NCBI RefSeq assembly: GCF_002571385.2
Contig: NW_019218189.1
Location: 62,001 to 119,456, forward strand
Reading direction: 5' to 3'
DNA length: 57,456 bases
Origin: Stylophora pistillata
Taxonomy: Eukaryota
Part shown: in pieces, positions 43,801 to 48,218 of the stretch
How positions within the stretch are numbered: the stretch's first letter is position 1
Layout: each line of letters begins with the position of its first letter
Translations under genes and position numbers: made by a program
The notes under the pieces: model-generated
What the model saw: the letters and a program-made list of their open reading frames with translations, nothing else
Databases searched by the model: none
What the model was told of the DNA's origin: nothing

Positions 43801-46106
43801 CAAATACTGTCAGCAATCTGCATTTGCAGCCTGTTTTAAAAGTACAACTGAAAGAGGATGACCACTGACGTAACCAACACCACAGATGTTATTGAACCCT
43901 TTTGCCCCTCAGATCTCATTAGTAATTCTCCCTACTGGGTGTCATACAATTCTTATGAAGTTACTTTGAAGAATTTGGTATCTGATCAACTATTAATCCC
44001 CTGGGCCTGGTTGTTTGAAGGCTGATTAGCACTAACCCAGGATTAAAATTAAATCCAGGTTTCTCTATTTGTCTGTTCAATAGCCTTTTTAGGAAAATTT
44101 TCTCTATTCTTTTTAGAATATGCAATCATCAAATTGCAGACATAGAGATTCAAACTCAGCTTTCTTTTAAAGCTTTCAGATCTGCAATTTCATGCTAACC
44201 CTAGGTTACCTTAACCCGGCTTTGAAAAACCCGGCCCTGGTTGATATTTTCCTATATTCTCAGCACTTGTCCTCTTGATGTTGTATTGGCATTATGAGGA
44301 GAAATTCTGCCCTGGTCACTCATGGGGAGTGAAAGAGTAAACACACAAACAGTGGTAGACCATGTATACAAAGGTGTTGCAGGCAAACACTTTCACAACA
44401 CACCATATTGCTGAAGGTGTATCCCTTGCTGTTCCCATTTGCTGTCACCCAGGCATCTACAAAGCCATATCCTTGGTTTGATCCTTGTGGGTCAAAATAA
44501 CTGGATGCATGGCAAGGGCCTTCCTTGTCAAAAGACCCTTTCATTATTCCATTTACAGGCCAATGGAAATCATCGTATGCATTAAAGTCACCCAGTAAAA
44601 CAGAGCGCTCACTCCCCATGGATGCAATATAGTTAATGACATCCACTGCATTTTGGCACTGCTGAGTTTTGTCATAAGATAAGTGAAGCACTGTTATGTC
44701 CAGTTCTTCTCCATCAATATCAACTTGGACGTGAAGTACAGCTCGCTTGTTGCGATCCACACCACCTTTCCCAATTGTTAAGTTAACAACATGACTTAAT
44801 ATTATGGGATGTTTACTGAGCAGTCCCAGGCCTTCCTGTTCCCACCCTGGTGGGTCTTGTCGACCAGCTGGAGGTGTAACCATGGCAACAGGGTGATAAA
44901 CTAAATGTTTGTAGTGTGGAATTAACTCTTGAAGTTCAGTTAACTGGTTTCTGTCATCTTTTGCATCAGCACGCACTTCTTGGAAACCAATTACATCTGG
45001 GTTAACTTTATTTATCTGAAAAAATTAAAAGCAAGAAACTAACGGGCAATTTCAAATTTATTATAGCAGGGTCTCCACACAAAAGCTTGATTTTATTTGC
45101 AGTCCGAGTTGAATCACTACAAAACAGCACTAAAAGAATACACTTTAAATCTTTCACTCACAAGATCTCATTAGCAATTCTCCTTACTGTCTGCCATACA
45201 ATTGTTATGATGTCAGTTCAGAGAATTTGGTCTTGGATCAACTGATAATCCCCTAATTAATATTTGTCTATTTTCTCAACATTTGTGTACTTGATATTGT
45301 ATTGATTTTGTTAGAAGAAATTCTCTCTTGGTCACTCGTGGGAGTTAGAGAGTTAAATAAACTTGGGCTACCAGTCTGTACAAACATCATTCCGTTTTGT
45401 TTCCAGTTTGACCTTGACCTATCTTTCTATCAAACAAAAACCAGAAAAAAATGGACCACTGATGGAATGATACTTTGTCATGATGTGAAAACAAAACAAA
45501 GAAATAAAATCAACATGAATAAAATCAATATAAATATCAGGGCTCGACACTAACTTTTCAACTTATTAGCCAAGTGGCTAGTGACATCTTAGATGTTAGG
45601 ACAATTTCAGTTTGTTTACTAGCCAAACTGGCTAGTGGAAATCGAAAACCACCAGCCAAAACTGAATTTCTACAGGTCTGTGGCTAGTGAGCTACAGTTG
45701 GTGTTGAGCCCTGAATAAGCCGTTGGGTTGATGTCAACATGAAACAAATGAAAAAATTTCAATCCTTCCAAAACACATGAACACGGGTATCGTAAGGTGA
45801 ACCAGGCTTTACCACCTTTTTTCGTTTATACACTTCCAAACATTTTATAAACATTAAAAAAAAAAAAAAACCGGAGTCTCACGATCTTCAATTTAAGAAT
45901 CTCTTATATTTAAGAGTTGCAAAAATCTTTGTCAAACATAATAACGTTAAATTTTAAATATCAAATGTCGGTTCCTGTGGTAAATAATTTATTCCTGAAG
46001 TACAAAGATAAAAATAAAAAAAAAATTCTTTATTTTTGCTCTTCCTTGCATTGAATGAATCCGGAAAAATAGTATCCTAACTTGCCAAATAATTAACACT
46101 AAAAAA

Positions 46107-46406: not shown

Positions 46407-46562
46407 TTAAACCACGGGGGACGACACGGGGATTATGAGTCTGCGTCGGTCTGGGAATGAGTTGCTCAAAATATCTCAGCTTTCACGTTTGTAGTCAGCG
46501 GTTTATAAATTCTTCATAGCAATTTGCTTGAAGTGTATTCTCCAGAAAATAGAGTTCAACCC

Positions 46563-46749
46563 ATAGACCACTTTCATAAATGGCTGCCGAATAAATATTC
46601 TTTTGTTTAAATTTAAATTAGCCCTACTGGCCTCGCTTGAGATAATGTATTTTTTTTTNAATTTTGTACTGGAGAACGAGGCCAGTAGGGCTAATTTAAA
46701 TTTAAACAAAAGAATATTAATCCAGCAGCCATTTATGAAAGTGGTCTAT
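46563..46749. mobile_element. Foldback MITE upstream of the EEP gene
   Basis: ~70-bp inverted termini atagaccactttcataaatggctgc / gcagccatttatgaaagtggtctat. Confidence 0.75.
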
Positions 46750-47315
46750 TAGCTTTGATGCCGCCCCCTTAGCCTGAGGCAAAAGAAAAGTGCTGTTTAT
46801 TATTCCAAAAACATTTCAAAAACATTTGCTTACAATTTTTGCATAAGCGGTCAAAATTTGTATTGACATAGTTGCAGAGATGCCTGCTGCATCCCCCTCG
46901 CCAACTAAAAAATAGATGCCCACTTTGATCAAATCAATCTCCCTTCCACAAAAAAAAATAGAAAACAAAGAACAACTGCAAGACCAGTTTGAGAAACAAG
47001 AAAAAAATTGTTTTGATTTGAGTAAATCTGGTGATATGATGTTAGCCAACAGTGGAGCAAAGCCTTTGAAAGGGTGAACCACATGGGAGACCGGGAGACT
47101 CTTTCTGCATCCAGGAGATTCCCTGATAATCCAGGAGAGTCACTTAAATACTGACATTTAACCCTAACTTTGAGGGGTAATTTAATGGAAGTTTTGCCAG
47201 ACCTTGTAAATTTATACACGGCTGATCACAGAACAAGAGATTAGAATAGAATATTTTACAAGAAAATGAATGAAAGTTGGAAAGGAAAATTAAAAACCAC
47301 AGTGGAGTACAAGGT

Positions 47316-48155
47316 TCAATGCTTCCATCCTACTGCATGACCATCCTCCATTTGAGGCTCAAGAAATCCACGGAAGACTTTTCCATCATAACTCCATCTT
47401 GCGCCATATCCTTCAATACACCTCACTTCAATAACTTTAAGTCCATGTGGCAGACAGTGGATATTAATCCATGAAGCATCCTCTAGTATACGCATTACAA
47501 CTGTATTAGCATGTTCATTTTTAACTTGTTCGCTACCTGCACAGACACCCCACCATTCACTGGAGTCCCTGTGGCAATGTTTTGATAAGGCTCTTGCACC
47601 AACTGTCAAATTGGCATTTGGTCTGTGTTTCTTATTAAAGGATTCTATAAGAACTTCCACAGGAGAAGGAAAAATATCAACACTGCCTTGCGTGCGACGA
47701 ATATTAAGCAGATCAAGCAGTCCTCTCACGCCGAGAAATTTTAAGATAGATGAAAACTGTTGACACTTTTCTTTATCAGATATTTCTGTCCAAGAATCAT
47801 TAAGGGAGGACAATAAAAGCCAAATTTTTTCAGAAATTTCTTTTCTCTCTTCAGTGAAGTCTTCCTCTGATAGAGATCCACAAGATTGGCTTTTTGCAGG
47901 AAAATTCCCAGTAGTCATCCACTGGTATAACTTTTTAGAAATTTCCAAATAAAGTGGATATCTAGGATACTTTCCTTCTTTTGCTGGTAAGGTACGGAAA
48001 GTCTCTTCGGAAAGTAACAAAGTTTCGCACTGCCCTTTGGACATTATTCCAGCTTCCTGAACAATCCACGTTTCTAAGACTTTCTTAACGACCGTAGCTA
48101 TACCATGGACAGAAACCATCTTTCGGATTGAGAGACACATTATACTCATGTACAC
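47316..48155 (-). CDS. Intronless protein resembling plant 'ASCH-domain' proteins but lacking ASCH; C-terminal polymorphic-toxin-like domain (likely start 48119)
   Basis: 279-aa ORF. C-terminal LTVGARALSKHCHR..WWG...KN...WINIH...EVR...YGARW..DG..FRGFLEP..EDGH..GWKH. aagATGg context at 48119. Confidence 0.75.
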   Translation of the reverse strand: MYMSIMCLSIRKMVSVHGIATVVKKVLETWIVQEAGIMSKGQCETLLLSEETFRTLPAKEGKYPRYPLYLEISKKLYQWMTTGNFPAKSQSCGSLSEEDFTEERKEISEKIWLLLSSLNDSWTEISDKEKCQQFSSILKFLGVRGLLDLLNIRRTQGSVDIFPSPVEVLIESFNKKHRPNANLTVGARALSKHCHRDSSEWWGVCAGSEQVKNEHANTVVMRILEDASWINIHCLPHGLKVIEVRCIEGYGARWSYDGKVFRGFLEPQMEDGHAVGWKH

Positions 48156-48218
48156 TATGGAGAAAATGGAAAATTCCTCCCCAGGCTCTCACGGAGTTAA
48201 TATTCTGTTAGTTTCAAG

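Follow-up and report, generated by a model that had tools for sequence, protein, structure and literature searches.

CdiA-CT PABL017 is a tRNase of the BECR fold that, according to PMC9086364, prefers tRNA-Gln and tRNA-Pro and has His3372 as its catalytic residue. It forms the tip of a secreted filamentous protein and comes with a separate immunity protein, and a meeting abstract describes the H3372A form as catalytically null and the toxin as able to cut eukaryotic tRNA (PMC12791740). The general mechanism given for BECR RNases in PMC9424270 is acid-base cleavage through the 2'-OH, and other members of the group also cut rRNA or mRNA (PMC9424270, PMC9086364). EndoU/XendoU is described as a BECR-fold RNase that occurs both as a polymorphic-toxin tip and as a cellular protein of eukaryotes, and the same source lists Ntox49 with stramenopiles and green plants (PMC3482391). 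Here we describe a eukaryotic protein family, represented in the coral Stylophora pistillata by a single gene, whose C-terminal domain is, by sequence and predicted structure, homologous to the CdiA-CT PABL017 tRNase clade. Toxin-related eukaryotic RNases have a precedent in EndoU, and the link between this family and BECR toxin RNases appears to be new: a search of open-access papers, PMC3482391 without its Additional File 1 among them, found none tying the family to the PABL017 structure (6D7Y) or to BECR RNases.

The coral gene lies on the minus strand of a 57,456-nucleotide stretch of contig NW_019218189.1 (the window) as an intact open reading frame (ORF) of 277 codons from its first ATG (47316..48149). 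The true start is likely Met11 (codon at 48117-48119), giving a protein of 267 residues, because 267-268 aa is the length of the database copy and of most stony-coral orthologs. The original prediction covered the last 114 codons; it gave the length as 279 residues, two too many, and had the motifs right. Every one of them is present (LTVGARALSKH at residues 181-191, N211, EVR at 241-243, GYGARW at 247-252, DG at 255-256, FRGFLEP at 259-265 and a terminal GWKH), and 338 homologous proteins at E<=1e-3 rule out a chance pattern. Contigs assembled from three polyA runs, at a depth of about 5-20, span 46967..48206 and cross the whole ORF with no splice joint, and the protein has no Pfam ASCH domain, so it does lack introns and ASCH as predicted. 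In the same three runs depth is 0 in the introns of the neighboring THOC7 gene and in the flank at 46835-46921, and 35-119 in the THOC7 exons; in a fourth run, sparse raw reads show mates oriented opposite to THOC7. Searching the 398-Mb genome with the C-terminal domain returned one match, the ORF itself. Eleven read differences fall within the ORF, eight of them synonymous and none at a conserved residue, and the GC content of the gene region is similar to that of the rest of the window.

THOC7 is encoded head-to-head with the coral gene on the plus strand (Pfam THOC7, E 1.2e-7). Its first three exons span 48219..48832 (48219-48231, taken directly from the sequence, 48336-48456 and 48705-48832), and the GT..AG joint 48456-48705 is present in all four runs. 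The two start codons are 69 bp apart, or 99 bp counted from Met11, and a bidirectional promoter likely lies between the genes. Directly downstream of the coral gene the window holds no ORF of at least 100 aa.

Residues 168-264 (47358..47648, minus strand) form the predicted BECR-fold nuclease domain, for which the original prediction of kinship to toxin RNases is borne out by four separate comparisons. Against solved structures, 6D7Y_A was the sole significant match both in a phmmer search (E 7.4e-5) and with a profile of 42 eukaryotic sequences (E 6e-7). The AlphaFold2 model of the coral protein (pLDDT 91.7, pTM 0.89) consists of a helical N-terminal domain and a helix-helix-four-strand C-terminal domain, with helices at 183-194 and 207-223 and strands at 227-232, 238-243, 249-253 and 259-263, mostly at pLDDT >90. 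With this model Foldseek returned a single match at E<=1e-3, 6D7Y_A (E 7.6e-4, TM 0.83 by target), and VIA-align superposed 92 of 92 residues at Z 12.2, rmsd 1.8 Å and 32% identity. The runners-up in VIA-align were the tRNase domains of colicin D (5ZNM and 1TFK, Z 6.7 and 5.7), so that the BECR core is recovered by superposition on both toxins. CdiA-CT Kp342, NC101, O32:H37 and BrnT share that core at Z 3.6-4.5; among BECR relatives after 6D7Y, the colicin D rows alone rise above the background of unrelated rows. All of these, colicin D included, differ from the coral protein in having only 4-12% identity to it and, as set out in Table 1 of PMC9086364, other catalytic sets. Strand 4 of the coral domain, FRGFL, is without Ser/Thr, as is that of 6D7Y; PMC3482391 describes a Ser/Thr at this strand as conserved in many, not all, clades. 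EndoU, with its duplicated core and His-His-Lys triad, is a different BECR enzyme, and no Pfam or structural match to it is listed for the coral protein. Domain libraries were silent: Pfam, NCBIfam, PADLOC and PHROGs gave zero matches to the coral protein (in PADLOC, none at a meaningful score), and a Pfam scan of 42 eukaryotic members, three toxin tips and two prokaryotic relatives returned ASCH only, which bears on the named toxin clades Ntox35, Ntox41 and Ntox49 as far as Pfam models them.

The shared motifs (ALSKH..R, WG, N, E.R, G.G.R and F.GF) bring the toxin's catalytic histidine into register with the coral sequence. Chain 6D7Y_A is numbered 3352-3443, 92 observed of 96 residues, with coral model residue 168 aligned to position 5 and residue 264 to position 96; this numbering places His3372 at chain position 25, where ALSKH has its H, opposite coral His191, and the two other histidines of that segment do not fit. 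From this numbering we infer that His191, in the Lys190-His191 pair (47577..47582, minus strand), is the equivalent of the toxin's catalytic residue. Thirteen positions (K190, H191, R194, W200, N211, W227, N229, H231, E241, R243, R251, R260 and E264) are invariant in all 42 aligned eukaryotic sequences, the predicted KH, E and R residues among them, and K190, H191, R194, W200, N211, E241, R243 and R251 are identical in 6D7Y. The KH pattern is kept in 128 of 132 eukaryotic proteins, in all 120 of the prokaryotic proteins listed and in nine of ten toxin tips. Glu241, Arg243 and Arg251 of GYGARW (47394..47429, minus strand), invariant polar residues of the sheet within E-x-R and G-x-G-x-R motifs found in 6D7Y too, likely form the floor of the active site. 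Identity to the coral residue averages 0.67 over residues 181-264 versus 0.20-0.42 in the N-terminal domain. Because 6D7Y has no counterparts of the eukaryotic histidines H231, H235, H271 and H277, the chemistry may have changed relative to the toxin.

Unlike the toxin, the coral protein stands alone at 267-277 aa and adds to the nuclease domain a helical N-terminal domain, the extra histidines and a C-terminal tail. The N-terminal domain is all-helical in the structure models and covers residues 11-157 (147 aa; 47679..48119, minus strand). Foldseek gave zero matches to it at E<=1e-3, and VIA-align over 48,161 chains reached a best Z of 4.2, with none at Z>=5; as modeled, the domain resembles no solved fold, a search result that falls short of proving a new one. 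Its last helix and an LL..R.T.GS linker are common to a family of prokaryotic two-domain proteins described below. Aligned against that family with HHalign, residues 55-158 score 92.6% (E 4.7e-7), and E 0.019 when the last helix and linker are removed, so that sequence-level kinship appears secure across the last helix and linker and weak in the helices that precede them. The idea that the domain is an immunity protein like the toxin's own, fused to the nuclease, is rejected (HHalign 0.1% against the immunity alignment). Pfam and NCBIfam found no RHS, filamentous haemagglutinin, HINT or VENN delivery region in the coral protein. There is no strong hydrophobic segment; the best 19-residue window scores 1.47 and lies upstream of or at Met11. 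With no delivery region, no immunity gene and a single genomic match, the coral protein is not a polymorphic toxin system, which would have a delivery region, immunity gene or cassettes; a search of the coral genome with one toxin immunity protein, a weak test, gave no match. The tail, QMEDGHxxGWxH (residues 266-277; 47319..47354, minus strand), carries two conserved histidines, H271 and H277 (98%), and its last residues have low pLDDT. Its pattern occurs in 112 of 132 eukaryotic proteins and in none of the 120 prokaryotic proteins listed, and is absent from the toxin tips.

We see about an even chance that the protein is a metal-independent endoribonuclease that works inside the cell, probably on tRNA, and that the helical domain likely restrains or aims its nuclease domain. 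His191, together with Lys190, Arg194, Arg243, Arg251 and Glu241, would carry out acid-base cleavage of RNA through the 2'-OH, and the choice of tRNA as the probable substrate is carried over by analogy from one homolog at 32% identity. The N-terminal domain, whose packing is fixed in the model (pTM 0.89), is likely a regulator or substrate selector because an unchecked tRNase would be intolerable and no conserved partner gene accompanies the family; it would stand in for the separate immunity protein and so let the cell keep the enzyme. The added invariant histidines and the eukaryote-only tail also suit a reading in which the fold was kept and the reaction changed. The protein might then process RNA termini or nucleotides that carry modifications, for instance by opening 2',3'-cyclic phosphates, possibly through a metal that the extra histidines coordinate, or it might simply bind RNA. 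An ASCH insertion in some members, a fold that PMC7641849 ties to modified bases, a HIT hydrolase as the next gene in two bacterial loci, and the additional cCMP hydrolysis that PMC9086364 reports for a contact-dependent (CDI) RNase of related RNase A/BECR type point the same way. However, the residues in common with the active toxin are all invariant, which a pure binder would not need, and the added histidines are differently placed in the prokaryotic family; we judge a changed reaction quite improbable.

The 338 homologs (120 listed) are spread widely over eukaryotes, and a further search gave twelve longer ones. Named matches among those listed come from stony corals, anemones, an octocoral and sponges; from molluscs, annelids, a nemertean, echinoderms and a hemichordate; and, outside animals, from Monosiga, Balamuthia, Pelomyxa, Physarum, Gonapodya, Zychaea, volvocine algae, Klebsormidium and Closterium. 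The family thus takes in invertebrates, a choanoflagellate, amoebozoans, early-branching fungi, green algae and stramenopiles, and ESM Atlas clusters made up mainly of oomycetes and streptophytes are a further lead. Vertebrates, insects and yeast do not appear among the named matches listed, which does not establish absence, and no land-plant sequence is among the matches listed. The original prediction had pointed to plant "RNA-binding ASCH domain" proteins with the same C-terminus and a shared YPLY. Klebsormidium and Closterium do carry Pfam ASCH and share the N-terminal domain, nuclease domain and tail, but they read RPLV and RPLY at the YPLY site. ASCH is inserted within the N-terminal domain of these streptophyte algae, near coral residue 120, and the annotation mentions it alone; it is found in one of 42 aligned members, plus Closterium, whereas the coral protein and most members are without it. 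Records among those listed are "uncharacterized" throughout, or named after ASCH in green lineages. PMC7112179 reports normal pollen transmission (49.33%) for an insertion in a maize gene that bears the "RNA-binding ASCH domain protein" annotation and is linked to this family by that annotation only.

Prokaryotic relatives are of two kinds. The original prediction had pointed to an LTxAGRALxKH...GFLEP pattern of bacterial toxin tips, and tips with LTxAGRALQKH...G.R...GFLEP were indeed recovered in RHS, CdiA, VENN and HINT proteins; examples are an RHS protein, a 2754-aa CdiA-type protein and VENN/HINT/RHS modules on plasmids (13 records). In the seven toxin-tip loci aligned, an ORF of 72-80 aa follows directly behind the tip. 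These small ORFs, such as L006:6266-6502, L007:8264-8482, L008:8267-8494 and L031:1793-2032, make up an immunity family whose members are loosely related and match nothing in Pfam or PDB, nor the immunity chain of 6D7Y. The second kind is an apparently undescribed family of stand-alone two-domain proteins of about 220-255 aa (187 matches, 120 listed), of which a search of open-access papers and PMC3482391 apart from its supplement found no description. It aligns with the eukaryotic family at an HHalign probability of 100% over 197 columns.

Two-domain genes are sparse. One occurs in six of 401 genomes of the phylum of genome G001, a 401-genome sample around genome G004 gave no prokaryotic match, and tblastn located the gene in 16 metagenome loci, 15 of them strong. 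One record (P0148), on a 44-kb contig, is labelled Candidatus Hermodarchaeota (Asgard archaea), and some loci look like Bacteroidota. Three of five GTDB loci (L002-L004) were rejected as bacterial members and are likely eukaryotic contamination of metagenome-assembled genomes: L002 has the eukaryote-type tail and repeats, and in L003 and L004 the matches are split into exon-like pieces. Their contigs carry the labels Planctomycetaceae, Stappiaceae and "bacterium". Across the 16 loci no neighbors are shared beyond three pairs of near-relatives, and hence there is no conserved immunity gene; weak immunity-like matches in two of four genomes that carry the gene lie far from it. One related pair from a single lineage (planctomycete-group, 9-Mb genomes) has the order pfk, tyrS, two-domain gene, HIT, ileS in an apparent operon (L051:4899-10479 and L052:2880-8431), in which the gene overlaps the start of HIT. 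The location by tyrS and HIT-ileS in these two genomes, like the ASCH insertion in streptophytes, suggests a link of the family to RNA.

Sparse occurrence with changing neighbors is typical of defense genes too. Abortive-infection tRNases stop translation, and the family could be a conditional defense or cell-death effector of prokaryotes and eukaryotes alike, its N-terminal domain sensing infection or damage and unleashing the RNase to halt translation. Toxin homology, the singleton prokaryotic members, the sensor-plus-effector layout and the apparent eukaryotic losses (of vertebrates, insects and yeast, judged from the named matches listed) agree with such a role. Yet PADLOC gave no meaningful score, and no defense gene was recognized among the scanned neighbors, which are a minority of all neighbors. 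Viral and phage collections hold no relative (nine pattern matches in an IMG/VR scan, none confirmed; none in phage records or BFVD folds), and the coral gene is single copy, strongly conserved and shares its promoter region with housekeeping THOC7. We consider a defense effector unlikely. A cellular role has roughly balanced chances and is the one we favor because of the single copy, slow evolution, low steady expression and upstream region shared with THOC7; the enzyme might then serve tRNA turnover, quality control or stress-triggered slowing of translation. Of the domesticated effector first proposed, the homology to toxin RNases stands, but the wide, old and single-copy distribution fits a cellular role better than fast-evolving defense.

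The closest relatives of the eukaryotic family appear to be the prokaryotic two-domain proteins and not the toxin tips: the eukaryotic profile gives 83-125 bits to 23 two-domain nuclease domains versus 12-43 bits to ten toxin tips. A tree of 59 nuclease domains over 108 columns, from which three eukaryotic long-insert rows were dropped and three interrupted tips and 6D7Y left out, separates toxins (100/100), prokaryotic two-domain proteins (94/92) and eukaryotes (96/79). A second tree, of full-length sequences, kept 26 eukaryotic rows and 14 prokaryotic ones after 12 of 52 had been dropped; in it the split between eukaryotes and prokaryotes has 100/100 support, deep eukaryotic branches are unresolved, and stony corals, molluscs, lophotrochozoans and homoscleromorph sponges form starred clades; a quick tree recovers an opisthokont group at SH-aLRT 83. 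This pattern fits one early eukaryotic acquisition of the two-domain form followed by vertical descent with losses. An Asgard origin by way of P0148 is unsupported: the record ranks 110 of 120 listed by the eukaryotic profile and falls inside a starred prokaryotic clade, although an AU test does not reject a sister relation to eukaryotes (p 0.66).

Animal Dae/Tae amidases are captured antibacterial toxins, and the intronless coral gene could likewise encode an antibacterial toxin that corals captured recently or secrete. Forcing two corals with the toxin tips is not rejected by an AU test on the short domain (p 0.31), where it is uncertain at which point the long toxin branch attaches. Against capture, full-length homologs with the same N-terminal domain and tail occur across eukaryotes, the starred clades follow animal groups, the toxin tips score poorly with the eukaryotic profile, and the protein has neither a strong hydrophobic segment nor a GC content unlike that of the window. 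Capture is largely refuted by the phylogeny and highly improbable; given its wide occurrence across eukaryotes, the sequences indicate that the family is old there. Toxin tips and stand-alone proteins share an ancestor, and the tree, having no independent root, accommodates either direction of descent. If a toxin did become a stand-alone protein, that step most likely took place in prokaryotes rather than by direct eukaryotic capture of a tip, because the nearest relatives are prokaryotic two-domain proteins with no delivery domain or immunity gene. The domestication of a toxin proposed at the outset is thus right as to kinship with the tips, but the nearest relatives are the two-domain proteins and the unrooted tree gives no direction.

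The enzymes behind stress-induced tRNA cleavage in invertebrates, algae and protists are only partly known. If active, the coral protein would add, alongside EndoU, another family of eukaryotic RNases akin to interbacterial toxins and would point to a self-controlled prokaryotic version. More tentatively, and as a doubtful extension drawn from sequence comparison, the family could be an ancient unrecognized eukaryotic tRNA endoribonuclease that persisted in lineages from amoebae and algae to corals, molluscs and sea urchins, with the active site of a contact-dependent bacterial tRNase toxin and its own switch in a new-fold helical domain. With its prokaryotic sister family it would represent a self-gated tRNase module encoded by one gene, and it would supply the missing origin of the tRNA fragments that arise under stress where angiogenin is lacking. 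His191 offers a single-residue handle on a family that lacks a Pfam model and is called "uncharacterized" or misnamed after ASCH, and tractable models (Nematostella, oyster, sea urchin and volvocine algae) carry the gene.

Elsewhere in the window, a short palindromic repeat element at 46560-46750, with arms such as ...GCCGAATAAATATTCTTTTG / CAAAAGAATATTAATCCAGC, has very high RNA read depth and is probably a multi-copy MITE. An exon at 44320-44883 (minus strand) encodes part of an endonuclease/exonuclease/phosphatase-family protein (Pfam E 1.3e-4), and a fragment at 5758-6624 (minus strand) is like the reverse-transcriptase ORF of a non-LTR retrotransposon. An intronless 585-aa multi-pass membrane protein at 28590-30347 (minus strand), with no Pfam match at threshold, presumably resembles otopetrin-like channels. 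Two related ORFs of 140-158 aa (3233-3709 and 8625-9047 on the plus strand), also with no Pfam match, lie near an ankyrin-repeat-like exon (10-336 on the minus strand); we take them to resemble TIR/SEFIR-type domains, and the region is possibly an immune gene cluster.
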